Below, piece after piece: positions 6,193 through 60,369 of a stretch of 64,000 nucleotides of DNA. Below the pieces are notes generated by a model. It made no database searches, was not told the origin of the DNA, and was given only the letters and a program-made list of their open reading frames with translations. The position numbers and the translations under genes were made by a program. Source of the DNA: Eledone cirrhosa (Eukaryota); the NCBI GenBank assembly GCA_964016885.1, contig OZ024747.1, positions 48,360,001-48,424,000 of the forward strand. Reading direction: 5' to 3'. The first letter of the stretch is position 1, and each line of letters opens with the position of its first letter.

Positions 6193-6859
6193 ATTTAGGA
6201 AGTCAAATATTCCTTCGATTCTTAAATTTTGCTATATAAACAAATGAGATAAGTCAACCGGAAGTTAAACGGAGCAACCAATTTATTGATAACCGGAAGG
6301 AATGAAATTTATTCAACAACAGTATATGAAGCCATTCGGTTGAAACATTCAGGTACATTTGCTGAACAGCAAATAATAGACTCGTTCATTAAGTGGCTCT
6401 TAAAAACCAGTATTACCCACACAAAATAAAATAAATGAGAAAACCCTAAACAAATAATTTTAAGATTAAATAAGAAAAGTAAAATAAAAACAGAAGAAAA
6501 TAAAGAAACTAACAAAAAAACTTATTAAATGGAGACACTATTTGAAGTTATTTTTCAACCGGGAAACAGCAAATTTTTCTGATTTACTCACTCTCTCCTC
6601 TCTTACTCATTCCCCCTTTATCTCTCTCTCTCTCCCTCTCTCTGTATATATATATATATATTTTTTTTTATAAAATATATATATATATATATATATTATA
6701 TTCTTTTTGAATTGAGTTTGAATTATTTTCCCACTTCTTACGTTAACTATTTTTCCATTTTGACGCTATAGCCACTTATATATTATGGAATACTGTTGGC
6801 TTCTTGCTACAATAATTTCTATACTTTTCATTTATATATATTATATATATATATATATG

Positions 6860-6928
<69 letters not shown>

Positions 6929-6929
<1 letters not shown>

Positions 6930-7379
6930 GATATTAAACAAATGGAAACTATATTTATAAAACCATATTTATTTCATTATACATATTTCAGGGATACCAT
7001 ATTAAAAATATGGCATGCCTTCGTCAGATAAAATACAATATATAAACAGTTTTATAAATAATTTTGACGTACCATATTATAAGCGACCATTATATTAGGA
7101 AGCTCTCTGGATAGACAGCTTCCTAATATAATGGTCGCTTATAATATGGTACGTCAAAATTATTTATAAAACTGTTTATATATTGTATTTTATCTGACGA
7201 AGGCATGCCATATTTTTAATATGGTATCCCTGAAATATGTATAATGAAATAAATATGGTTTTATAAATATAGTTTCCATTTGTTTAATATCGTATATCTA
7301 CTCCAAAAACTTGTCGAGTGCTTTATATCAGTTATAAAATATTTACTTGTTGTAACCCAACAATTTTAAATAAAACTTT

Positions 7380-7382
<3 letters not shown>
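6929..7382 (+). mobile_element. (TA)n-embedded palindromic HHR element, family A (Penelope-pLTR/retrozyme-like)
   Basis: ~176-bp matching inverted arms centred at 7110/7111 plus a unique 3' tail 7298-7382; homologous to 47789-48237. Confidence 0.85.
7186..7251 (+). ncRNA. Type I hammerhead ribozyme (mirror copy on minus strand 6970-7035)
   Basis: Stem I TATTTTAT/ATGAAATA; CTGACGA 7194-7200; stem II AGG.C.ATGCCATA/TATGGTAT.C.CCT; GAAA 7232-7235; short stem III; AUA cleavage after 7243. Confidence 0.85.
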
Positions 7383-7449
<67 letters not shown>

Positions 7450-7452
<3 letters not shown>

Positions 7453-7670
7453 CAAAGGAATTGTGGTAAGGAACAAGATGGACCATAACGCACCAGAATA
7501 CTCAATACTTAGGGTAGTAGAGTGGGAAATAGGAAAAAGTATGACCCCGATGGCAGAGCTCAAGCCGTTTCGACGGCTATTTCTGGACTATTTCCGGCTA
7601 TTTCCGTCCAGAAATAGCCAGAAATAGCCATCGAAACGGCTTGAGCTCTGCCGTCGGGGTCGTACTTTTT

Positions 7671-7675
<5 letters not shown>
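7450..7675 (-). mobile_element. (TA)n-embedded fold-back element, hairpin 7529-7675
   Basis: ~60-bp inverted arms with a unique tail at 7450-7528; has cgaaac but no CTGANGA. Confidence 0.65.
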
Positions 7676-7717
<42 letters not shown>

Positions 7718-8309
7718 TATAATTACGTTAAGTCTATACATATATAACGTATATTGATTAAGTTATTCAACTAGATGTATAAAAGTTACTTTTTTGTATA
7801 TGTTTTGTATATAAGTATATATATATATATATATATGTATATACATGTATGTCTGTGTTTATAGGCACATATATTTATGTAGATATATAATATGCATAAG
7901 TATACGTACAACGTTTCTTACGCACACACTCACATACATACATACACACACACATACATATATATTATCATATATACGCACACACACTCACACTTATATG
8001 TACGTATATATATATATATATCTCCAGAGAGGGAGAGAGAGAGAGATGGAATAAGGCGCCAGTATATTTTCTCGACTTTAATATAGTCTGTTGTTTGGTC
8101 TATTAAACTATATCTAAGCTATGTAAGCCAGAGCTGAGCTGCTGCTGCTGATAAATGGTATTTGATGTAATATATCTAATATTGTATATGTCGGCAGAAC
8201 ACTGCCGTTAGATAATCATTCATTGTTTCGTCATTCATTAAATGGGCAGTCACTATTTATTGGTAAAAAGGATTCGTGCTTGAGTGTGCATACACAAACA
8301 CATACACAC

Positions 8310-8384
<75 letters not shown>

Positions 8385-8388
<4 letters not shown>

Positions 8389-8732
8389 AAAGTTAAACAA
8401 GGTTCAATGAATACATCAAAGAATGAGTTTTACAAAAGATTGGATGCACTCAACAGTAAAAAGGTTTTCCAGAGTTATTAATATTAATTCAAAATATTAA
8501 CAACATAGATATTCTTGTGATCAATTATATTTTATTATACATATTTCAGAGGTACTGAGTTAAGTTCAACAGTACGTCCTCATCAGAAAAAATAAGATGA
8601 TGCTTGACATACCCATGCATCATCTTATTTTATCTGATGAGGACGTACTGTTGAACTTAACTCAGTACCTCTGAAATATGTATAATAAAATATAATTGAT
8701 CACAAGAATATCTGTTTTGTTAATATTTTGAA

Positions 8733-8739
<7 letters not shown>
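8385..8739 (-). mobile_element. (TA)n-embedded palindromic HHR element, family B
   Basis: Inverted arms 8481-8603/8617-8739; tail 8385-8440 recurs in reverse at 33305-33364. Confidence 0.85.
8626..8692 (+). ncRNA. Type I hammerhead ribozyme (mirror copy on minus strand 8528-8594)
   Basis: Stem I TATTTTAT/ATAAAATA (8 bp); CTGATGA 8634-8640; stem II GGA.C.GTACTG/CAGTAC.C.TCT; GAAA 8673-8676; AUA cleavage after 8684. Confidence 0.88.
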
Positions 8740-11186: not shown

Positions 11187-11436
11187 AACAATCTGTTCTA
11201 CAGTGTGGATGTCATTCACTTCGCACAGAAGTTTTGTTCAAATTTATTGAGGAAATTTTGTGAGTTCAAACTTAATTTTGATACAATTGTGTAGCTTGAC
11301 CCTCCGTCTGAACTGTCAGGCGGTGGGTCAGCTCATCTTTACCCCTCCTAGAGGTGAAAAACCTGTTTTAAAAAATTTTGTGTAAAAAATTTCAATCGTC
11401 TAACAGAAATGTTAAACGCAGCGAACGAAAATAGTT

Positions 11437-13311
11437 GTGGGGGGGACAGCGGTAAGAGTTGTAAGCTCGCACGCTTTAGTCCCCCCTTCCTTCCCAACTA
11501 ACGTCATAGAGAAGGAAGGAAAAATTAAAATAAAAACAGACGAATCTGCGGAGAAAAAAAATGACGAAAACACAAATCTGGACATGGATTCCAACAACGA
11601 AAAAAAAAAATTTGAAAAATTGCATGACAATACTAATAACACAAACAAAGACACAACAAACACAAAAATAACATTTGAAAATAACACCATAACAGAAAGC
11701 AAAGCAGACGACAAGATTTCATTTGCACAGAAAACAAAGAAATCTTTGACTTATATAGCGGAAAATATTTCAGATGTGGCACGAAGGATCACAGACGCCA
11801 AACAATACATAAGTGAAAGAGAGAATGGTATTTTATCGGTAAAAATGCCTCAAGAATTCACCAAAGACATTGAAAGCCGAACGGTCAAGTTTCGGACCAT
11901 CAACAACAGTACAAAAAAACCTGAACAGCCTTCTCAAGCAGATATCAAAACAGTACTCACAGAAGTACTTAATGAAACCACTTTCATAAGAAAAGACAGA
12001 CTGTATGGAAGCCTAGCAATTATCATGAAGAACGAATCGGCGGCAAAAAAATGTGCTTTGTCACCGATTCGTTCGAAAAATTTCACCTTTTATCCATCTT
12101 ATATGGGGAAAAGAACTCAACGCATATGGCTGGATGCAATGATGCCAGATGTGGACTACTGCTGGCTCATAGCTGGCTTCATCGATCCAGTGAATGACAA
12201 CGTGATTTCCATTGGGAAAACCACAGGCAATGCGTTCAGTGGAACAGATATAGAGCTGGTAGTGCAAATGAAGCCTGAACGCATCGCCCAAATACCCGAC
12301 AGAATCCTATTAGAGGACCACGGGTATATAAAAATTAGCGTGGAGGGGAGAAGGCCGTCCTGCCATATCTGTGCAGGCAGAGGGCACCTGAAGGCCGCTT
12401 GTCCCCAACTCAACAAAAAGAAAACCCTGCTACCAACACCAGCTCCACCACCACCACCACCACAACAGATAAACAAACAACAAAACTCAGTCCCACCCAA
12501 CCCGTCCCTCAGTAAAACCACAACACCATCACAACACAAACAGTCACAACACATTACCCCAAAACAAAATACAGGCCCACCCAACCTCTCACTCAATAAA
12601 ACAACACAACCACCGCAGACATAACACACAACACAGTCTAACATAGTGACATCCATCTCCCCCACAAAGAAAACCAACACGGAAACATTACCAGCAAACA
12701 TACCTCTTCCCTCCAACACTGAAGATAACCCAACGAATTCGGAGGAAGAAACGGAGTCCTTCAGACAGATTAAAAGGAAAAAAAGAAAACATGTGCAAAA
12801 CACACAAGGCCAAACAACCCCCACCCAAATCTCAACACAATCCAACAAAACAGGAAACACCCCTCCAGCAACAAACAAAACCAAACCTGCCCCTCCCCTC
12901 TTCGAAACACTCACACCATCCGAAAAAAAGACATTACACTATACTTACATCAACGGAAACAATAATAAATTAAATGAACTCATATACAATAATCCTTCGG
13001 TACAAACCGAAGGTGTAAACTTTGTTTCGTCAGAAAACTACCCACATTTAAAATTAATAAAGATCCCAATGAACCTCTACCAAAAACTAAAAAAAGGATT
13101 TTAAGGAGGACGTAGGACCACCCTCTGTCAAACCCATAAACCGCGTCCTACTAAAAAGCTTTCCCCCTCCCCTTCCCCTCCCCAACACAACTCCAAACAC
13201 CCCAACCCCACCACACACTGACAACCCCACACCACCACAAGACACCCCTTCACCCAACACCCCCGACCCCATGGAAGTCGTGCAACCCGAACCCCGGGAA
13301 GCGGAAAGGTA
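11437..13311 (+). pseudogene. Tx1-like ORF1 (gag-like, CHICAGRGHLKAAC knuckle, P/T-rich tail), disrupted
   Basis: ORFs 11437-12624 and 12646-13104 are in frame across a stop; the tail appears frameshifted up to the TAG near 13311. Confidence 0.8.
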
Positions 13312-13345
13312 GGTCTCTACACTCTCCTTTGGCTCTGCCGCCCAC

Positions 13346-16300
13346 ATGGATGTGTTAAGAGTAGGATGTTTGAATGCACGTGGCCTGGGCTCAACTTGGA
13401 AGCAAGCAAAGCTTCTAAATGACCTCAGGTCATGTAGTATAAATGTAATGGTTATCTGTGAGACTCGAATCAGCGTCGTGCGGCAGCTGGCCCCCACCTT
13501 CGATGACTTTGAGGTGCATGCATCTCTCTGTCAACCTGGAGGTGGGGGTGGGGTTGTCGTACTGCTGCAAAAACACCTGGGTCTTGCCGTACAGGTTGTG
13601 CACTCGGACCCGGAGGGTCGTTTGTTGGTGCTAGACGTTGGCAGTAGTGAAAGTGCGGCCTTGAGACTGGTCGCCGTCTACTCCCCTTTCGGAGCTGAAC
13701 GGCCCGACTTCTTCCAGCGTTTGGAGACTTTTCTGGGAACGTCGCGTTCCCTGCTTCTAGCGGGGGATTGGAATGACATCCTGGATGCACGTTGGGACTA
13801 TGCAGGAGCATGTCCTAATAGAGGGGGGTGTAACAGCCTCAAGGGGTTACTCGACCGTTTTAACTTGGTCGATAGATATCGACTAGATTTTCCAACTGTG
13901 CCAACCTGGACTTGGAGAAACCACAGTGGTCAATCTAGATCGTACTTAGATAGATTCTTAGTTAGAAGTAAGGATAGGGACATATTAAGCTGTCCAGAAA
14001 TGCGCACGGTTGGCTACACGGATCACAAATTAGTGACCTGCGTGGTGAATCTCGAGAAAACACATAGACAGGGTCCCGGTTACTGGAAACTTAATTTGTC
14101 TTTACCGGCAAAAGAGACTTACAGAAACCGGATTAGCAGATTAGTTAAGGAGAGGTTGACGGGTGCAATCGTCAACAACCGATGGTGGGCATCTCTCAAA
14201 AGAGAGATTAGAACAGAATCAATAAATTATAGCAAGATGTTAGCTGCCGATAGGAATAGAAACGAGAAAGAATTAACAGGTAAATTAGAAGAGGCAATCA
14301 AGAGCGAAGATGTGGCCAGAGTGCTGGCATCGAGGACGGCCTTGAACCAGTTTTTCGATGCAAAGCACGAAGGCTGCGTCATTCGAAGTAAAATACGTGC
14401 TCTAGGTAATGAGGGGGCCAAAGCCGTTGGATGGGCCCGCGTGACAGAAGCTAAGAGTGGAAATCGATCCACCATCCGGTCGTTGCAAGACGAAGATGGA
14501 CGGGTGATCCGGGAGCCTAAGCAGATGTGCGAGGCCTTTCAAAGGCACTTTGCCCGATTGTTCGGGGGAGGCGAGGGTCCGGGCGGGGGCGTGGATTTCG
14601 GTCCATACCTCGACGGCCTGCCGCGTCTCTCGTGCGAAGAGTCAGAGTCCTGCGAGGGACCAATCTCGGCTGATGAGATCGGAGATGCGCTGAGCCAATG
14701 CAGCAGACGCAAATCTCCAGGTCTTGATGGTATACCTTACGAATGCCGGTCTTCTTCTCCGAACTCCTCGAAGCGGTCTACTGCAATTGGCAGCAGAACG
14801 GGAGAATTCCTTGTTCTGTAGCCAAAGGCGTAGTCACGCTGGTGAGGAAGGACGAGAACAAGGGGGATAGTATAAATAATTTTCGGCCCATAACCCTGCT
14901 AAACACAGAGTTAAAGATTTTGGCCAAGGTGTTAGCAAAGAGGTTGGCGCTTGTCGTGGGTGGCCTGGTGGGAGATGCGCAGACATGTGCTATCCCATCC
15001 AGGTCCATTCACGATAACCTCCACCTCATGCGAGACATCATAGAGAGGGTTGGCAACAAACCCGGCTTCGGTGGGGCCCTGATCAACTTGGATCAGTCTA
15101 AGGCCTTCGATAGGGTCGACCATGGTTACCTGGATGCGGTGCTAGCGGCGGCTGGGTTCGGTCCTGTTTTCAGAGGCTGGATAACTGCCTTACATAGCAA
15201 CCACATCTGTTCTAGGATCAAGGTGAACGGCTACCTTTCGAAGCCGTTCGAAATCACACGATCCATTTGACAGGGGTGCCCTCTCTCCTCCCTTCTGTAC
15301 GTATTGACTCTCGAGCCTTTACTGAGGAATTTGGAGTTGTTGCAGGGTATTCCCCTGGAACCAGGATTGAGCAAAGCGGTGTCGGCCTACGCCGATGACG
15401 TAACGGTAATGGTATCGACCGACTCGGAGATCGAGGCGATCGGTACCTTACTGGAGGAGTACGAAAGGTTGTCAGGAGCGAAACTGAACCGGGAAAAATC
15501 CATCGGGCTGCAACTCGGAACGTGGAGAGGCAGACCGATGCCTCCTGACGGTGTTGTCGAACACTGGACGGAGGACCCGGTAAAGTTGCTTGGGGTCTGG
15601 TTTGGACCGGACCTCCAGGTGGAAAAGAACTGGAACGAGGTTACGAACAAGGTGTTTGCACTAACCCAGAAATGGGCCAAGTGTAAGCTGTCCCTAAAAG
15701 GCCGGGCGGAGGTGGCGAACATTTACATAGCGTCCGTCACTTACTACCGCCTGACTGTCGTGCCTTGCCCTAAGGAAACACTCACCACCATGGAACGCAT
15801 GCTCTTCCAATTTCTTTGGAAGAAGCGCCCTCCTATGGTGAGAAGATCCATCTGCTGCCAACAACCTTCGAAAGGAGGGCTGGGGATGCCGTGGTTGATG
15901 ATGCGTAGGCACGCATTAAGGCTACGGCACCTACAGGTATTCCTCACTGGTCAACCGGTGTGGGCTCCGTTCGTGAAACGAGCCTTTCCGAGACTCGTCT
16001 CGCTCACCGAGCTACAGTCCTGGGTCAAGCAAAGATCCGGAAAACTGGGAGACTGGCACACTGAGTGTGCTCAGGCGCTCAGGGCTCTCTGGCAAGCGGG
16101 CCAGGCCATCGGTGGAGAATCCACCTCATCATTCTATAGAGGGCTGGTGGCTAGCAGGGGCGATGACACCCTTGGAGAGTCGCTGGACATGGAAGAAGAC
16201 GAACTGGCCAGCCTGTTCGGTAGGACTTTCGGCCCAGGACCAATGGACAACTTCCAGAAGTCACTGGCCTGGCAGTGCTACCGGGGGGCTCTACCCGTTC

Positions 16301-16770
16301 GAGAGAGGCTCTACAGACACGGGCGCCCGGGCAGGGATCCCTCAAAAAAGATTTGCCCTAGATGCGTGCGTCACGAAGAAAGCGTTGCGCACGCATTGGT
16401 GCAATGTCCGGGCGTGGCTGATCTGTGGGGCTACGCCGAACGACTGCTGTCGCGGGTGGCGCCGATTAAATTGACCGCGGAGTCCGTGATGACAATCAAA
16501 CCGCCTCCCCTCTTCACAAAGGAAGCAAAGGCGGTTTTTCTGTGCGTAATAGCCATGTTGAAAGAGGTTGTTTGGTGGACACGATTGAAAGGTCTGAGGT
16601 CAGGCAACTTCCTCTCTGGCCATAGTCTGGTCTACTTCTTCCGATATCACTTCGGAAGAAGGATAAGAATGGAGAGAGAGGTGCTTGGCCGCAGGCAGTT
16701 TTATGAAAGGTGGGTGATAGTGGCGAGAATGGCTCGTGTAAATGGGCCTTCTCTGTATACCATCCTGTAG
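13346..16770 (+). pseudogene. Tx1-like ORF2 (APE-RT-zf), one frameshift and one nonsense codon
   Basis: LNARGL, ICETR, AGDWN, SYLDRF, TDHK (APE); FRPITLLN, LDQSKAFDRV, SI*QGCP (TGA 15268-15270, probably from CGA), AYADD; CPRC...HALVQC; frameshift near 14743. Confidence 0.92.
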
Positions 16771-18212: not shown

Positions 18213-18742
18213 ACAAACAAGTGAAAAAGAAACAAAAAAAGCTAAAGCCATTTTTTTAAACGGCGACAAAATCTGAAGCCTCTTAAAAAATAACAAAATT
18301 TACAACATAAAAAAAAAAAAAAATTATATATAAAATAAAATTAATGAAACTGAAACGAAAATATAATATATATCTTAAACAAACATTCATAAATATCCCG
18401 AATAAAAATAAGCCCCCCCCCCCCCCCACTAAAAAAAATATAATAACATGTTTAAAATTTGTCGAAAGATAGTAGTAAAAGATTTGGGTATGTATGTACG
18501 GTCCTGTAACTCGTGATAGAGTCTAGGGGCCTCGTATTGACATACAGCGTTTCTTGGACACTAAGCTTAGCGAAGCCCATTCGTCTCCAGGTCTGAGTAC
18601 AGTAGATTTCTTCGAGAGAAAGATAGAAAGTGAGGAAAAGAGAAAGAGATATAGAGGAAGAATCGACCTTTAGTACTAGACTGGTACTTTTTTTTATTGA
18701 TCTCGAAAGGATGAAAGGCAAAGTTGACCTCAGCAGGATTTG

Positions 18743-21700
18743 AACGAATACCATAAAGCATTCCATAACGAATACCATAAAGCATTCCGTAACGAATACC
18801 ATAAAGCATTCCATAACGAATACCATAAAGCATTCCGTAACGAATACCATAAAGCATTCCATAACGAATACCATAAAGCATTCCATAACGAATACCATAA
18901 TGCATTCCATAACGAATACCATAAAGCATTCCGTAACGAATACCATAAAGCATTCCATAACGAATACCATAATGCATTCCATAACGAATACCATAAAGCA
19001 TTCCGTAACGAATACCATAATGCATTCCATAACGAATACCATAAAGCATTCCGTAACGAATACCATAAAGCATTCCATAACGAATACCATAATGCATTCC
19101 ATAACGAATACCATAAAGCATTCCGTAACGAATACCATAAAGCATTCCATAACGAATACCATAATGCATTCCATAACGAATACCATAAAGCATTCTGTAA
19201 CGAATACCATAAAGCATTCCATAACGAATACCATAAAGCATTCCATAACGAATACCATAAAGCATTCCATAACGAATACCATAATGCATTCCATAACGAA
19301 TACCATAATGCATTCCATAACGAATACCATAATGCATTCCATAACGAATACCATAATGCATTCCATAACGAATACCATAAAGCATTCCATAACGAATACC
19401 ATAAAGCATTCCATAACGAATACCATAATGCATTCCATAACGAATACCATAATGCATTCCATAACGAATACCATAAAGCATTCCATAACAAATACCATAA
19501 AGCATTCCATAACGAATACCATAATGCATTCCATAACGAATACCATAAAGCATTCCATAACGAATACCATAATGCATTCCATAACGAATACCATAATGCA
19601 TTCCATAACGAATACCATAATGCATTCCATAACGAATACCATAAAGCATTCCATAACGAATACCATAAAGCATTCCATAACGAATACCATAATGCATTCC
19701 ATAACGAATACCATAATGCATTCCATAACGAATACCATAAAGTATTCCATAACGAATACCATAATGCATTCCATAACGAATACCATAATGCATTCCATAA
19801 CGAATACCATAATGCATTCCATAACGAATACCATAAAGCATTCCATAACGAATACCATAATGCATTCCATAACGAATACCATAATGCATTCCATAACGAA
19901 TACCATAAAGCATTCCATAACGAATACCATAATGCATTCCATAACGAATACCATAATGCATTCCATAACGAATACCATAAAGCATTCCATAACGAATACC
20001 ATAAAGCATTCCATAACGAATACCATAATGCATTCCATAACGAATACCATAATGCATTCCATAACGAATACCATAAAGTATTCCATAACGAATACCATAA
20101 TGCATTCCATAACGAATACCATAATGCATTCCATAACGAATACCATAATGCATTCCATAACGAATACCATAAAGCATTCCATAACGAATACCATAATGCA
20201 TTCCATAACGAATACCATAATGCATTCCATAACGAATACCATAAAGCATTCCATAACGAATACCATAATGCATTCCATAACGAATACCATAAAGCATTCC
20301 ATAACGAATACCATAATGCATTCCATAACGAATACCATAAAGCATTCCATAACGAATACCATAAAGCATTCCATAACGAATACCATAATGCATTCCATAA
20401 CGAATACCATAATGCATTCCATAACGAATACCATAAAGCATTCCATAACGAATACCATAAAGCATTCCATAACGAATACCATAATGCATTCCATAACGAA
20501 TACCATAAAGTATTCCATAACGAATACCATAAAGCATTCCATAACGAATACCATAAAGTATTCCATAACGAATACCATAAAACATTCCATAACGAATACC
20601 ATAAAGTATTCCATAACGAATACCATAAAGTATTCCGTAACGAATACCATAATGCATTCCGTAACGAATACCATAAAGTATTCCATAACGAATACCATAA
20701 AGCATTCCATAACGAATACCATAAAGTATTCCGTAACGAATACCATAAAGTATTCCGTAACGAATACCATAAAGTATTCCGTAACGAATACCATAAAGCA
20801 TTCCATAACGAATACCATAAAGTATTCCATAACGAATACCATAAAGTATTCCATAACGAATACCATAAAGTATTCCGTAACGAATACCATAAAGTATTCC
20901 GTAACGAATACCATAAAGTATTCCATAACGAATACCATAAAGTATTCCGTAACGAATACCATAAAGTATTCCATAACGAATACCATAAAGCATTCCATAA
21001 CGAATACCATAAAGCATTCCGTAACGAATACCATAAAGTATTCCGTAACGAATACCATAAAGCATTCCGTAACGAATACCATAAAGTATTCCATAACGAA
21101 TACCATAAAGTATTCCGTAACGAATACCATAAAGTATTCCATAACGAATACCATAAAGCATTCCGTAACGAATACCATAAAACATTCCGCAACGAATACC
21201 ATAAAACATTCCGTAACGAATACCATAAAGCATTCCGTAACGAATACCATAAAGCATTCCATAACGAATACCATAAAGCATTCCGTAACGAATACCATAA
21301 AGCATTCCATAACGAATACCATAAAGCATTCCGTAACGAATACCATAAAGCATTCCATAACGAATACCATAAAGCATTCCATAACGAATACCATAAAACA
21401 TTCCGCAACGAATACCATAAAACATTCCGTAACGAATACCATAAAGCATTCGGCAACGAATACCATAAAGCATTCCGTAACGAATACCATAAAGCATTCC
21501 GTAACGAATACCATAAAACATTCCGCAACGAATACCATAAAGCATTCCGTAACGAATACCATAAAGCATTCCGCAACGAATACCATAAAGCATTCCGTAA
21601 CGAATACCATAAAGCATTCCGTAACGAATACCATAAAGCATTCCGTAACGAATACCATAAAGCATTCTGTAACGAATACCATAAAGCATTCCGCAATGAA

Positions 21701-22212
21701 TACCATAAAGCATTCCGTAACGAATACCATAAAGCATTCCGTAACGAATACCATAAAGCATTCCATAACGAATACCATAAAGCATTCCGTAACGAATACC
21801 ATAAAGCATTCCATAACGAATACCATAAAGCATTCCGTAACGAATACCATAATGCATTCCATAACGAATACCATAAAGCATTCCGCAACGAATACCATAA
21901 AGCATTCCGTAACGAATACCATAAAGCATTCCGTAACGAATACCATAAAGCATTCCGTAACGAATACCATAAAGCATTCCGTAACGAATACCATAAAGCA
22001 TTCCGCAACGAATACCATAAAGCATTCCATAACGAATACCATAAAGCATTCCATAACGAATACCATAAAGCATTCCGCAACGAATACCATAAAACATTCC
22101 ATAACGAATACCATAAAGCATTCCGTAACGAATACCATAAAGTATTCCATAACGAATACCATAATGCATTCCATAACGAATACCATAAAACATTCCGCAA
22201 CGAATACCATAA
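18743..22212. repeat. 24-bp satellite (AACGAATACCATAAAGCATTCCAT), ~145 copies, expanded inside a SINE
   Basis: Constant 24-bp period; flanks 18660-18742 and 22213-22252 are the two halves of a minus-strand SINE. Confidence 0.95.
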
Positions 22213-25954: not shown

Positions 25955-26013
25955 CTGCTATATATATATTTCAGTGATAGTCATTATTCAACAGCTATGA
26001 CCTCATCAGGCAG
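25955..26013 (-). ncRNA. Type I hammerhead ribozyme
   Basis: Minus strand: CTGC-CTGATGA-GGT.C.ATAG...CTAT.C.ACT-GAAA-TATATATA-TA-GCAG; sits in a (TA)n-flanked element 25900-26270 with short inverted ends (25900-25936/26133-26170). Confidence 0.75.
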
Positions 26014-31692: not shown

Positions 31693-31975
31693 AATGGCTA
31701 AATAACGTAAATAAAGTATATATGTAAATACAGTATATATATATATATATATATAATTAAGTTAAAAATGTACATCCACATATGTATACTGAAATACTAG
31801 TATGCATATGAATACACACACGTATACATATGTAGATGTACCAAGTTTTTCACTGGTCACTTTACTGTGAGTGTCCAGCTATTCTGTATGTAAACACACA
31901 GACAAACCGGTTTTTAGAGTCATACTGGTTTTTGAGGAAACACCTTTCCTCTATTCTCCAGAAAGCCAGACAAGG

Positions 31976-32020
31976 AATATTGAACTAGTTTCGTTGTTGT
32001 TACAACTCATCAGCAATATT
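31976..32020 (-). ncRNA. Minimal type I hammerhead ribozyme
   Basis: AATATTG-CTGATGA-GTTG TAACAA CAAC-GAAA-CTAG-TT-CAATATT on the minus strand. Confidence 0.9.
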
Positions 32021-32459
32021 TACCTATCTTCCGGCCTTTCTGGAGAATCGTAAAAGCACATATCGTTATATGCTTTTTCTATGAAAATTAGTAGTGGGCA
32101 GACTAATTTGCATAGAGTGTGAGTACGTACCGGTTCAACGGAGACGATAAAAACAAATAACGAAACGAAATTAAATTTCGTTTCGTTTGTAACTCACTTT
32201 TGTATGACTGACGCTTAAACAATTAAGTTAAAAATGTACATCCACATATGTATACTGAAATACTAGTATGCATATGAATACACACACGTATACATATGTA
32301 GATGTACCAAGTTTTTCACTGGTCACTTTACTGTGAGTGTCCAGCTATTCTGTATGTAAACACACAGACAAACCGGTTTTTAGAGTCATACTGGTTTTTG
32401 AGGAAACACCTTTCCTCTATTCTCCAGAAAGCCAGACAAGAAAGGCCGGAAGATAGGTA

Positions 32460-32504
32460 AATATTGCTGATGAGATGTAACAACATCGAAACTAGTTCAA
32501 TATT
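32460..32504 (+). ncRNA. Minimal type I hammerhead ribozyme, compensatory stem II variant
   Basis: AATATTG-CTGATGA-GATG TAACAA CATC-GAAA-CTAG-TT-CAATATT. Confidence 0.9.
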
Positions 32505-32925
32505 CCTTGTCTGGCTTTCTGGAGAATAGAGGAAAGGTGTTTCCTCAAAAACCAGTATGACTCTAAAAACCGGTTTGTCTGTGTGTTTACATACAGAATA
32601 GCTGGACACTCACAGTAAAGTGACCAGTGAAAAACTTGGTACATCTACATATGTATACGTGTGTGTATTCATATGCATACTAGTATTTCAGTATACATAT
32701 GTGGATGTACATTTTTAACTTAATTGTTTAAGCGTCAGTCATACAAAAGTGAGTTACAAACGAAACGAAATTTAATTTCGTTTCGTTATTTGTTTTTATC
32801 GTCTCCGTTGAACCGGTACGTACTCACACTCTATGCAAATTAGTCTGCCCACTACTAATTTTCATAGAAAAAGCATATAACGATATGTGCTTTTACGATT
32901 CTCCAGAAAGGCCGGAAGATAGGTA

Positions 32926-32970
32926 AATATTGCTGATGAGTTGTAACAACAACGAAACTAGTTCAATATT
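32926..32970 (+). ncRNA. Minimal type I hammerhead ribozyme
   Basis: AATATTG-CTGATGA-GTTG TAACAA CAAC-GAAA-CTAG-TT-CAATATT; GUU cleavage after 32963. Confidence 0.9.
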
Positions 32971-33258
32971 CCTTGTCTGGCTTTCTGGAGAATAGAGGAA
33001 AGGTGTTTCCTCAAAAACCAGTATGACTCTAAAAACCGGTTTGTCTGTGTGTTTACATACAGAATAGCTGGACACTCACAGTAAAGTGACCAGTGAAAAA
33101 CTTGGTACATCTACATATGTATACGTGTGTGTATTCATATGCATACTAGTATTTCAGTATACATATGTGGATGTACATTTTTAACTTAATTGTTTAAGCG
33201 TCGGTCATACAAAAGTGAGTTACAAACGAAACGAAATTTAATTTCGTTTCGTTATTTG

Positions 33259-33307
<49 letters not shown>

Positions 33308-34166: not shown

Positions 34167-35620
34167 GTACTGACTCTCGAGCCATTACTGCAGAAGTTGG
34201 AGTTGTTGCAGGGCATCCCGATTGAACCAGGACTGCGGAAAGCAGCGTCGGCCTATGCCGACGACGTAACCGTAATGGTGTCGAAAACCTCGGACATCGG
34301 GGTAATCGGCAACCATTTACAGGAATACAAAACGTTGACAGGAGCATGACTAAACCCAAACAAGTCTATCGGTTTGCAGCTCGGCACATGGAGAGGCAAA
34401 CCCATGCCTTCCGACAGTGTCGTTGGACGCTGGACAGAAGGACCGGTGAAATTGCTTGGGGTCTGGTTTGGTCCAGACCTCCAGGTGGACAAGAACTGGG
34501 ACGAGGTCACGGCGAAGGTGTTTGCACTCACCCAGAAGTGGGCTGAGTGTAAACTCTCCTTGAAAGGTCGAGCGGAGGTGGCGAACACTTACATAGCGTC
34601 CGTCATCTACTACCGCTTGACAGTTGTGCCTTGTCCCCGCGAATACCTCACCAAAATGGAACGCCTACTCTTCAAGTTCCTCTGGAAGAAACAGGCTCCA
34701 TTGGTGAGGAGATCCATCTGCTGTCAACACCCTTCTAACGGAGGGCTGGGCATGCCGTGGCTGATGATGCTGAAACACGAGCTGAGGCTACGCCATCTCC
34801 AGGTATTCCTGACCGGCAAACCGGTGTGGCAGTCGTTTGTGAGACAAGCTCTCCCACAACTCGTCTGACTAATAGAGCTGCTGTCCTGGGTCAAGCGAAG
34901 ACCGAAAATGGGTGCCTGGAACCTCGAGTGCCTACAGGCGCTCACAGCCCTCTACCAAGCGGAAACGGCAATCAACGGAGACTCTATAGGGGATTAGTGG
35001 AGGATAAATGCGACGACGTTTTCGGGGAAACTCTAGACATCGAGGAGGACGAACTGACCAGTCTGTTCGGGAGGACTTTCTGTCCAGGGCCTATGGATAA
35101 CTTCCAGAGGTCTCTGGCCTGGCAGTGCTACCGAGGAGCTCTACTAGTTCGAGACAAAATCTACAGGCACGGACGCCCTGGCAGAGATCCTGCCAAAAAG
35201 ACCTGTCCAAGATGCGAGAAGGACATCGAAACCGTTCTGCACGCAATTGTTCAGTGCCCAGGGGTGACCTACCTGTGGAATTATGTCGAACAGCTACTGT
35301 CACGCGTGGGACGCCACCCAGTTGCCAGCCGAGTCCATCGTGAGGATCACCCCGCCGCCTTCATTTAAGAATGAAGGAGAGGCGGTTTTCCTCTGTCTGG
35401 TGGCTATGGCGAAAGAGGTAATATGGTGGACGAGGTTAAAAGGACTGAGAGCAAACACCTTTCTCTCCGGACAACAAATTAGCCCCTTCTTTAAGTACCA
35501 CTTCAGAAGGAAGGTGAGAGTGGAGAGAGAGGTGCTACACCCCAGTAAATTCGCTAAAATGTGGGTGAATGTAGCGAAAATGGCCTGAGTGAATGGGCCT
35601 TCTCTGTATATAAACCTGTA
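34166..35620 (+). mobile_element. 5'-truncated, decayed Tx1-like ORF2 copy (related subfamily)
   Basis: SAYADDVTVMVS, LGVWFGPDLQV, GGLGMPWL, CPRC...HAIVQC; collinear with 15297-16770; starts directly after (TATC)n. Confidence 0.92.
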
Positions 35621-47330: not shown

Positions 47331-47788
47331 AATAACATGTGACAAAGATGGACATATGAATTATAGGTATAGTTCATCTGGCAGATGTCCATACAATTAC
47401 CGTCTACTCAATTTCAGTCTTAAGACAAGGTTGACCTCAGCAGGATAAGAATTCAGAAAGAGCCAGAATAAATACCATAAAGCATTCTATCCGTCGTTCT
47501 AACGACTCTGCCAAATCGCCGCCGCCAGTTTTGTTTGAAGGAAAGACAAAGGCCGATATATCTTGGCACTAATCAGGTGTTTCCTTTCAAATGTAAAGAT
47601 ATAGCAAGGCATTGTGTCCTACGTCCTAACAATTCCGTCAACTCCACACAATACACTGGTTCCTTATTGATCAACCCCGAAAGGGTGAAAGCAAACTTGA
47701 AATCAGACTGTAGAGAGCTAGAAGAAACAACGCAAAACGTTTTTTCAATGCTCTAATGATTCTGCGAGAATATATATATATTTATATA

Positions 47789-48237
47789 CGATATTAATAA
47801 ATGGAAACTATATTTATAAAACCATATTTATTTCATTATATATATTTCAGGGATACCAAATTAAATTATGGTATGCCTTCATCAGACAAAATACAATATA
47901 TAACAGTTTTACAAATAAGCGTTGACGTACCCTATTAAAATACAACCATTGTTTTTGGAAGTAATCCGGATTACTTCCAAAAACAATGGTTGTATTTTAA
48001 TAGGGTACGTCAACGCTTATTTGTAAAACTGTTATATATTGTATTTTGTCTGATGAAGGCATACCATAATTTAATTTGGTATCCCTGAAATATATATAAT
48101 GAAATAAATATGGTTTTATAAATATAGTTTCCATTTATTAATATCGTATATCTACTCCAAATACTTGTCGAGTGCTTTATATCAGTTATAAAAATATTTA
48201 CTTGTTGTATCCCAACAATTTTAAATAGAACTTTTGC
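47789..48237 (+). mobile_element. Palindromic HHR element, family A (second copy)
   Basis: Spacer-less palindrome centred at tcc|gga 47967/47968, arms ~179 bp, 3' tail matches 7298-7382. Confidence 0.9.
48042..48106 (+). ncRNA. Type I hammerhead ribozyme (mirror copy on minus strand 47829-47893)
   Basis: TATTTTGT-CTGATGA-AGG.C.ATACCA...TGGTAT.C.CCT-GAAA-TATATA-TA-ATGAAATA. Confidence 0.85.
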
Positions 48238-57327: not shown

Positions 57328-57391
57328 TAGTAGTAGTAACAGTGGCAGTACAAATATAGACGTTGTAAGAGGGGTTAAGGGTCATTGAAGC

Positions 57392-59510
57392 TGTTACAGT
57401 AACTGTTACAGTTACTGTAACAGTAACTGTAACAGTTACTGTTATACTTACAGTTACTGTTACAGTTACTGTTACAGTTACTGTAACAGTAACTGTAACA
57501 GTAACAGTTACTGTTATACTTACAGTTACTGTTACAATTACTGTTACAGTTACTGTAACTGTAACAGTAACTGTAAGTATAACAGTTACTGTTACAGTAA
57601 CTGTAACAGTAACTGTAACAGTAACTGTTATAGTTACTGTAACTGTAACAGTTACTGTTACAGTAACTGTAACAGTTACTGTTACAGTTACTGTAACTGT
57701 AACAGTTACTGTTACAGTAACTGTAACAGTTACTGTTATACTTACAGTTACTGTTACAGTAACTGTAACAGTAACTGTAACAGTAACTGTAACAGTAACT
57801 GTAACAGTAACTGTAACAGTTACTGTAACAGTAACTGTTACAGTAACTGTAACAGTAACTGTAACAGTAACTGTAACAGTTACTGTAACAGTAACTGTAA
57901 CAGTTACTGTTACAGTAACTGTAACAGTTACTGTAACTGTAACAGTTACTGTTATACTTACAGTTACTGTTACAGTTACTGTAACTGTAACAGTTACTGT
58001 TACAGTTACTGTTACAGTAACTGTTACAGTTACAGTAACTGTAACAGTAATTGTAACAGTAACTGTAAGTATAACAGTAACTGTTACAGTTACTGTTACA
58101 GTAACTGTTACAGTTACTGTAACTGTAACAGTTACTGTTACAGTAACTGTAACAGTAACTGTTACAGTTACTGTTACAGTTACAGTAACTGTAACAGTAA
58201 CAGTAACAGTAACTGTAACAGTAACTGTAACAGTAACTGTAACAGTAACTGTAACAGTTACTGTAACAGTAACTGTTACAGTTACTGTAACTGTAACAGT
58301 TACTGTTACAGTAACTGTAACAGTTACTGTTACAGTTACTGTTACAGTTACTGTTACAGTTACTGTTACAGTTACTGTAACAGTAACTGTAACAGTTACT
58401 GTTACAGTAACTGTAACAGTAACTGTAACAATAACTGTAACAGTTACTGTAACAGTAACTGTTACAGTAACTGTAACAGTAACTGTAACAGTAACTGTAA
58501 CAGTTACTGTAACAGTAACTGTAACAGTTACTGTTACAGTAACTGTAACAGTTACTGTTATACTTACAGTTACTGTTACAGTTACTGTAACTGTAACAGT
58601 TACTGTTACAGTTACTGTTACAGTAACTGTTACAGTTACAGTAACTGTAACAGTAATTGTAACAGTAACTGTAAGTATAACAGTAACTGTTACAGTTACT
58701 GTTACAGTAACTGTTACTGTTACAGTTACTGTTACTGTTACTGTTACAGTTACTGTAACAGTAACAGTAACTGTAACAGTAACTGTTACAGTTACTGTTA
58801 CAGTTACAGTAACTGTAACAGTAACAGTAACAGTAACTGTAACAGTAACTGTAACAGTAACTGTAACAGTAACTGTAACAGTTACTGTAACAGTAACTGT
58901 TACAGTTACTGTTACAGTAACTGTAACAGTAACTGTAACAGTAACTGTAACAGTAACTGTTACAGTTACTGTAACTGTAACAGTTACTGTTACAGTAACT
59001 GTAACAGTTACTGTTATACTTACAGTTACTGTTACAGTAACTGTAACAGTAACTGTAACAATAACTGTAACAGTTACTGTAACAGTAACTGTTACAGTAA
59101 CTGTAACAGTAACTGTAACAGTAACTGTAACAGTTACTGTAACAGTAACTGTAACAGTTACTGTTACAGTAACTGTAACAGTTACTGTAACTGTAACAGT
59201 TACTGTTATACTTACAGTTACTGTTACAGTTACTGTAACTGTAACAGTTACTGTTACAGTTACTGTTACAGTAACTGTTACTGTTACAGTTACTGTTACT
59301 GTTACTGTTACAGTTACTGTAACTGTAACAGTAACTGTGACAGTTACTGTTACAGTTACTGTTACTGTTACAGTTACTGTAACAGTAACTGTTACAGTTA
59401 CAGTAACTGTAACAGTTACTGTTACAGTAACTGTAACAGTAACAGTAACAGTAACAGTAACTGTAACAGTAACTGTTACAGTTATAGTTACTGTTCCTGT
59501 TACTGTTACT
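57392..59510. repeat. Self-complementary hexamer satellite (GTWACW)n, ~2.1 kb
   Basis: Mixture of gtaact/gttaca/gttact/gtaaca; same consensus on both strands. Confidence 0.95.
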
Positions 59511-60369
59511 GCTACTTTTATTGCTGGTGTTGTTATTGTTGTCATGTGGAGAGGTAGGAGGGACGAAACAATCCAATGTCCTTGAAAAATACTACAAGAA
59601 TACATACAACATACACATATACATACATATATACACATACGTACATGCGACATACAATTATATATTCAACATACATACACATACATACGACATACGTACT
59701 CATACCTACAACATACATACATACATACAACATACACACGTACATACATACAACATATACATATACGAACATACAACTAACATATACGTACGTACATACA
59801 ACATACATATACGTACATACATACAGCACACATATATACATACAACATACATACATACATACATGCAACATCCATGCAACATACACGTACATACATACAT
59901 ATACATATGTTCATACATACATACATACATAAATACATACATACATTCTATCATACATACATATATACATACATTACTGCATGGTGGCTGCCAACTCCTT
60001 TTCGAGTACGGCCACAACTTTATATCCATGTAGGAGAACCCTTACCGATGCGCTGAACGAGTGTGACTTTTTAGTCCAGCCAGCGACTTGAAAACTCTGG
60101 TACAAAGACTACACTTGTGACAATTATTGACACATAGTGCTGGGCCCATGGTACCATGTGACGACAAGTGCAGAGAGATCTCCAGATATAAAGCAATGCC
60201 TGTGCCGTGAAGCTTTTATAGTGAGCAAAGGCACTGCACAAAGCCAGTCCCACTCTCTTAACCAAGATGATATTTACCAAAAAGAAGGACAAGTCAACAT
60301 TATTGGATACCATCATTGGATACCATATATGCATATATAGATGCATACATAAAATCTTCCATACATACA

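Follow-up and report, generated by a model that had tools for sequence, protein, structure and literature searches.

Head-to-head pLTR palindromes of a Hydra-clade Penelope-like element in Eledone cirrhosa: a probable outcome of twin priming at two fixed start sites

A 64,000-nucleotide stretch of the Eledone cirrhosa genome (the window) contains two palindromes whose arms match within each locus and differ between loci, and the question was how such structures are made. A preliminary description had reported that the two loci are homologous but differ at many sites and at their centres, that the 48-kb copy has no spacer and that both left arms stop at the same internal cgTATAT, which merges with the flanking TA tract; each of these points was upheld. 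Alignment of locus A with locus B detected 87.7% identity across 471 columns. The perfect inverted arms of locus A (6924-7104 and 7117-7297) were 181 bp each, with the outer 5 bp being TA tract, and enclosed a centre of 12 nt, while those of locus B (47784-47967 and 47968-48151) were 184 bp each with zero spacer. At both loci, the left arm stopped at ...ATATCG|TATAT (end1, taken as position 0) and was followed by (TA)n, and the right arm extended 90 to 91 nt past end1 to ...TTTTGC|ATATAT (end2). The apparent spacer of locus A consisted of element sequence, with the left arm being 5 nt longer at its 5' side than the right arm and with one substitution. The centre of locus B was a natural 8-bp palindrome of the element that was unchanged in copies reading through this point (Table 1). 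Both palindromes were confirmed as real features. When copies were compared genome-wide, the joints differed from locus to locus, the outer ends were fixed and the flanks were distinct. Raw Illumina RAD-seq reads of two other samples were examined on a full-length copy (L031), and 6,326 and 7,491 TA-flanked loose ends were detected at end1, together with strand-switch joints inside the pLTR that were present in both runs (e.g., 7763-7902 and 7792-7887). Thousands of read loose ends with mixed flanks were also observed at L031:7681-7682, ∼20 nt inside the tail end, and possibly mark an alternative downstream start site of other subfamilies.

Table 1. Positions of the features of the two palindromes within the window
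Feature	Positions	Strand	Remarks
(TA)n target tract, left of locus A	6870..6928 (start approximate)	no strand	
Locus A (L128) inverted tail-less pLTR arm, subfamily A	6929..7113	minus	element positions -184 to 0
Locus A direct pLTR arm, subfamily A	7113..7292	plus	element positions -179 to 0
Locus A type I hammerhead-like motif	7181..7255	plus	sequence and fold
Locus A 90-nt tail, end1 to end2 (...TTTTGC)	7293..7382	plus	
(TA)n target tract, right of locus A	7383..7451	no strand	
Locus B (L190) inverted tail-less pLTR arm, subfamily B	47789..47971	minus	positions -182 to 0
8-bp palindrome ATCCGGAT common to both locus B arms	47964..47971		
Locus B direct pLTR arm, subfamily B	47964..48146	plus	positions -182 to 0
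Locus B type I hammerhead-like motif	48037..48110	plus	core CTGATGA 48050-48056, GAAA 48087
Locus B 91-nt tail, then short TA tract	48147..48237	plus	

Each palindrome comprised an inverted tail-less pLTR copy lying head-to-head with a copy bearing the 90-nt tail, inside (TA)n. This is the Penelope-type inverted pLTR structure, to which the preliminary description had rightly likened it, and motif content identified both palindromes as short 5'-truncated insertions of a Penelope-like retroelement of the Hydra clade. The full-length copy L031 (subfamily A) consisted of a pLTR with tail, an ORF, a 1.9-kb 3' UTR and a second pLTR stopping at end1, and its tail ran on into the ORF leader, linking pLTR and tail to the ORF. 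Tandem or inverted pLTRs with an optional tail, as in EN+ Penelope-like elements, were thus seen both in this copy and at the 62 inverted junctions described below. The ORF (7614-5391), which contained one stop and one frameshift, had a YRDD RT core and a C-terminal NVVY...NYVG and was assigned by these motifs as an RT with a C-terminal GIY-YIG-type endonuclease, both in a single ORF. Pfam searches produced zero matches in three pieces of the L031 ORF and zero in L034, and a weak GIY-YIG match (E 0.043) in the homolog P0007.

Several features of L031 were those of the Hydra clade (Craig et al. 2021, PMC8557442), a group of EN+ Penelope-like elements whose endonuclease is C-terminal. The DKG-to-DKT change was present (VKSDKTNNLY), as were the CxCX5C linker ahead of the endonuclease (CNCRNKSNC) and the CxxC and CxH motifs flanking the conserved E and N (CDLCVEE...LNLRSNLFSCCRH); CCHH was absent, and there was no CxxC between the halves of the GIY-YIG core. 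The N-terminal motif RIRWRAFHF had RWR instead of the RWK of the clade, a conservative K-to-R change, and homologs carried both forms. No insertion-in-fingers domain was apparent; counted by eye, the segment between the first catalytic D and MG had 64 residues here and 65 in Hydra-1_Obim, a Hydra family from Octopus bimaculoides included in the PMC8557442 supplement. Five short motifs of the window element had no match in a text search of that supplement, pointing to a family other than Hydra-1_Obim. The element was inserted in (TA)n, with ATATAT directly following 101 of 108 tail ends (repeated places counted), in a host genome that is 3.0 Gb and TA-rich. Hydra elements are described as generally <3 kb (PMC8557442), and the unit of pLTR, tail, RT/GIY-YIG-type ORF and 3' UTR exceeded this norm at ∼4.3 kb because of its long 3' UTR. 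The sole named protein relative was from Argonauta hians (41% identity). An initial assignment to Naiad was abandoned because the endonuclease proved to be C-terminal; Naiad/Chlamys elements have an N-terminal endonuclease and no canonical hammerhead, and a hammerhead core was present here. A foldback or MITE DNA transposon with fixed symmetric TIRs was ruled out by the asymmetric ends, the varied centres and the RT ORF in long copies. The palindromes represent a new family of a known clade with an already published architecture.

The hammerhead criterion of EN+ Penelope-like elements was assessed by sequence, and CTGANGA-stem II-GAAA with stem I was present in both subfamilies. The locus A motif comprised stem I (7181-7191 and 7244-7255), the core CTGACGA (7194-7200), stem II, GAAA at 7232 and a minimal stem III, with cleavage predicted after 7243, and the left arm carried an antisense copy with its core at 7027 on the minus strand. 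Folding recovered stems I and II at locus A (z -2.05), and the fold was weaker at locus B (z -0.51), where cleavage is predicted after 48098. An Rfam scan of 6800-7500 detected zero hammerheads, the sole matches being hairpin-driven miRNA matches below the gathering score. Few arms ended at the predicted cut site, near -49.

Other repeats were observed in the window. A second hammerhead-bearing palindrome in (TA)n was present at 8385-8739. It had arms at 8481-8739 (94%), was extended by ∼95 nt on one side and appears by its sequence to be another Hydra-like family of the same tailed/tail-less design. A further (TA)n-embedded palindrome, likewise extended on one side, was located at 7452-7675, and a hammerhead core was not found in it; related copies flank several loci of the window family (e.g., L023). 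A 1.4-kb inverted repeat (97%) at 31755-33265 contained three cores of a different hammerhead type (CTGATGAG...GAAAC) and may represent tandem and inverted pLTRs of a further Penelope-like or retrozyme-like family (for retrozyme background, see the preprint 10.64898/2026.07.22.740005). A lone hammerhead core resembling the Hydra type was located at 26009 on the minus strand. The window also held a frameshifted LINE-like element (11416-16770) with ORF1 and, by motif, an APE-type endonuclease and RT, a related fragment (34350-35368) and long tandem arrays of 12-bp and 6-bp types (18599-22200 and 57376-59530).

In order to compare arms, copies were collected from the genome with the arms of each locus. 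The subfamily A search produced 795 candidates and the subfamily B search 1,340; the best 40 of 795 and the best 40 of 1,340 were scored, and these were 98 to 100% identical to their queries. Loci A and B are accordingly assigned to two subfamilies on sequence grounds, with the difference between them being subfamily divergence, and since the loci belong to different subfamilies, the 12% A/B difference is uninformative on arm pairing. Among 58 subfamily B places, 22 were read as 3.2-kb rather than 6-kb loci and 18 were left out. Copies L129 to L132, L136 and L176 on C18 had shared flanks and a complex tandem-inverted structure, and copies L184 to L186 on C2 were evenly spaced; both clusters look like segmental duplicates, and all but one or two copies per cluster were excluded from counts.

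Arms paired by locus within both subfamilies. Over 160 bp, there were 0.77 differing sites within a locus (13 loci) versus 1.51 between loci in subfamily A (permutation p 0.0005) and 1.47 (15 loci) versus 2.98 in subfamily B (0 of 20,000 permutations). At lineage-marking sites, the same haplotype was present on both arms in 22 of 23 subfamily A pairs (shuffled mean 6.5, maximum 14) and in 15 of 19 subfamily B pairs (shuffled mean 5.4, maximum 12), with the other 4 of 19 differing at one haplotype site. The match held for arms that were kilobases apart (L156, L160 and L206). Of 34 locus-private changes, 28 were on one arm only and 6 were on both arms. As haplotypes were paired by locus and private changes were mostly one-armed, the two arms derive from a single source template at insertion and have mutated separately since then. 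These patterns argue against steady conversion, which appears unnecessary to explain the likeness of the arms, and are compatible with occasional conversion. Hence, of the two origins offered in the preliminary description, the making of the palindrome anew at each insertion was borne out by locus-specific junctions and shared haplotypes, and the maintenance of homogeneous arms by conversion was not supported.

The geometry of insertion was examined in a junction survey of 95 loci, obtained from 120 after exclusion of 25 same-place repeats or segmental duplicates. There was no called junction in 26 loci, and 71 head-to-head junctions were called in the remaining 69. Of these junctions, 62 were tailed/tail-less, 2 tailed/tailed and 2 tail-less/tail-less, with one end uncalled in the last 5. 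The surveyed loci were top-scoring matches, many of them retrieved with a tail-bearing query, and polarity was therefore rechecked with position-ordered pattern matches on C1. A head-to-head tail-less partner was present within 9 kb of 18 of 31 tailed arms, whereas in the lists of 100 tail-less and 100 tailed arms, like-with-like arrangements were limited to one pair each, with 7 to 9 kb between the partners. Across loci, the centres and junctions varied, and the outer ends were fixed at end1 and end2. The junctions themselves had 2- to 8-nt overlaps or short locally templated inserts.

The 5' extents of the two arms were counted by hand in the 62 tailed/tail-less junctions. In 17, the tail-less arm exceeded the tailed arm by >20 nt, and in 18 the reverse held; the two were within 20 nt in 26 and 1 was ambiguous. 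Gaps of >500 nt occurred in both directions, the tail-less arm being longer in six loci (L100, L160, L182, L187, L205 and L206) and the tailed arm in five (L137, L145, L156, L158 and L195); central deletion after insertion could be another way for either arm to become shorter. In some loci the tailed partner consisted of tail only, starting at -5 to +7, i.e., within 7 nt of end1, in four of them (L109, L182, L214 and L216) and at +41 in L188 and L223. Resolution by TA microhomology, as previously suggested, held in that TA microhomology was found at both outer ends, but TA runs inside the arms at -131, -115 and -56 (7 to 9 nt, versus 5 nt at end1) were bypassed. Because these longer runs go unused, end1 behaves like a programmed start rather than a site at which resolution happens by chance. 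Three loci (L144, L154 and L196) had a short inverted patch that fell short of end1 and was joined to a non-TA flank, as snap-back would yield. An inverted 82-bp piece from the ORF start with a TA tract alongside was observed at L134:775-856 and may reflect infrequent priming at a third site, located downstream of the tail.

Tail-less ends were more numerous than tailed ones. Exact-pattern counts genome-wide detected 4,764 tail-less ends in TA (end1+TA) versus 1,669 tailed arms, part of this excess being accounted for by tail variants, as further subfamilies with other tail starts exist. In a sample of 20 tail-less ends without an exact-pattern partner, an inversion was present within 600 bp in 9, flank with no partner in 3, and 8 ran past the sequence examined. 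The excess of tail-less ends and the three partnerless cases suggest that many insertions use one priming only.

The length of ∼180 bp pointed to a 5' hotspot. Among 45 partner arms that had not been picked by the query, hand-counted from the junction survey, 22 ended at -190 to -165, and in the unbiased C1 set the end1-to-end1 span was ≤375 bp in 9 of 18 cases, 5 of which were at 350 to 375 bp. For subfamily B, the exact zero-spacer centre on the 8-bp palindrome was found at 20 loci genome-wide, and 28 arms broke at -185 versus 112 reading through. The break fell on the A of TCACT; this motif was conserved in the other subfamilies observed and has been termed Inr-like in Adineta pLTRs. A G preceded the -185 break in 9 of 28 arms (p ∼0.03 against an assumed 16%), a weak cap-like enrichment. 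A transcript driven by the pLTR promoter probably has its capped 5' end at position ∼-186 (TC|ACT), where 5'-pLTR-primed cDNAs would run off; a strong pause site at this position would fit as well.

The structure, the fixed outer ends, the polarity, the common source haplotype of the arms and the independent 5' extents are best explained if one RNA is primed twice at two fixed sites, one per target end, with the products joined by microhomology, and we consider this twin priming probable. The element protein would cut both strands of the (TA)n tract, and each freed 3' end would pair with a short TA run on one shared RNA and prime reverse transcription, one end at the upstream end1 (ATCG|TATAT) and the other 90 nt downstream at end2 (TTGC|ATATAT). 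Both cDNAs would then extend 5' independently. The downstream cDNA may stall where the upstream hybrid starts, as in L1 twin priming, and leave a tail-only partner, or it may displace the upstream cDNA, so that the pLTR is duplicated; tail-only partners within 7 nt of end1 would be expected from such stalling on the same RNA. The two like-sense cDNA ends would be joined head-to-head via the 2- to 8-nt microhomology or short templated inserts. In most short palindromes, both cDNAs would stop near -186, and in subfamily B, where the self-complementary 8-mer is 3 nt from the stop, two identical strands could anneal to form a zero-spacer palindrome. The wider proposal that inversion and one-sided tail are a single programmed event, consisting of dual-end priming, strand displacement and run-off at the capped 5' end with a solo head-to-head pLTR as the commonest product, has in our judgment an even chance of being correct.

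The relative extents of the two arms also bear on the other routes to a head-to-head pair. Snap-back, favored in the preliminary description, in which an end2-primed cDNA would fold over and serve as its own template before being joined to the left TA tract via microhomology at end1, is documented for R2 insertions, often after full-length cDNA (PMC11371274). It would account for identical arms and for the tailed/tail-less polarity, and the 18 of 62 junctions with the tail-less arm within the tailed one and the 26 near-symmetric junctions agree with it, as do the three short inverted patches, which look like its products. With this route, the tail-less arm should be contained in the tailed arm, yet in 17 of 62 junctions it reached beyond, by >500 nt in six, and the six tail-only partners had little or no overlap. 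The longer inner TA runs would have been met earlier than end1 and were unused, and a zero-nt loop on an 8-mer should be harder to produce by folding than by annealing of two strands. Snap-back is thus contradicted as the general route, and we regard it as improbable. Self-priming on an antisense RNA template, put forward for head-to-head Penelope repeats in the Discussion of PMC3846280, permits identical arms, longer tail-less arms and tail-only partners. The tailed arm should then lie within the 5' range of the folded arm, but it was the longer one in 18 of 62 junctions and by >500 nt in five. Neither route yields both extents, because each demands the opposite nesting. Antisense self-priming also leaves unexplained the two fixed outer ends, which match start sites on sense RNA in vitro, and it appears very improbable.

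Independent extents, and duplication without strand displacement, would also result if twin priming took place on two separate RNAs, both derived from one active source copy and kept together by a protein dimer. A dimer is predicted for the PAc protein (PMC11167929), and a few arm pairs were discordant. Against two RNAs, the tail-only partners stopping within 7 nt of end1 suggest collision on a single molecule, equal RNAs offer no cause for the strict end1/end2 polarity and 37 of 42 pairs shared a haplotype despite several source lineages; this variant is unlikely. Palindromes are prone to gene conversion or hairpin repair and to fold-back during assembly, and 6 of the 34 locus-private variants were on both arms. 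An origin of the pattern in either process is nevertheless hardly credible, as 28 of 34 private variants were one-armed and haplotypes matched in arms kilobases apart, while fixed ends with varied junctions and unique flanks are unlike artefact products and raw reads from two other samples carried both the TA-flanked ends at end1 and the pLTR strand-switch joints.

Twin priming of one RNA, if true, would replace the published self-priming with a single event that ties together tail, inversion and microsatellite targeting. The value added here is a testable mechanism derived from genome copies: the thousands of ends and the young, 98 to 100% identical copies are sufficient for comparing insertion models, and they give sharp predictions, directly testable in an existing in vitro system, that each target end uses its own start site, that a single RNA is copied, that the 5' extents are independent and that run-off occurs near -186. 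Long perfect palindromes are also steadily added to the Eledone cirrhosa genome by this family. In L1, the internal priming point is variable and the segments are non-overlapping, unlike the window family, in which both start points would be fixed and the segments mostly overlap, resulting in a palindrome. The likeness to the twin-priming model for L1 inversions (Ostertag and Kazazian 2001, summarised in PMC10760644) lies in a second priming event at the target, the joining of two cDNAs through microhomology and the 5' inversion. A literature search, with older subscription papers outside its scope, detected no study that had invoked twin priming for the inverted repeats of Penelope elements.

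Among Penelope-like elements, the window family resembles the Hydra clade in DKT, CxCX5C, the CxxC/CxH pair around E and N, the lack of CCHH and IFD, the pLTR hammerhead and the (TA)n target, and it is unlike that clade in RWR for RWK, in the length of its unit and in the thousands of ends in its host genome. Inverted tail-less pLTRs, palindromic junctions and a one-sided tail have already been described (PMC3846280, PMC8557442), and how these elements form tandem and inverted repeats and favor microsatellites is presented as unresolved by the authors of PMC8557442. Adineta Pen2a_Av (PMC3846280) similarly has a direct pLTR copy that meets an inverted, 5'-shortened one head-to-head at a palindromic junction, and a tail at a single end. 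The tail of the window element is 90 nt versus 30 to 40 nt in the Penelope elements described in these sources, no target-site duplication is readable inside its (TA)n, unlike in described inverted pLTRs, and its data favor twin priming over the self-priming proposed in PMC3846280. The PAc protein (Poseidon, Anolis) cuts and extends both strands in vitro, with two start sites bounding the tail (Frangieh et al. 2024, PMC11167929). These start sites are reported there as neither strand-specific nor homologous to the cut DNA, which counts against the strict polarity and TA homology proposed for the window family. The window family would share with PAc two internal start sites delimiting the tail, extension of both target strands and an uncleaved RNA template, and would be unlike it in using start sites that are TA-homologous to the target, one per end.
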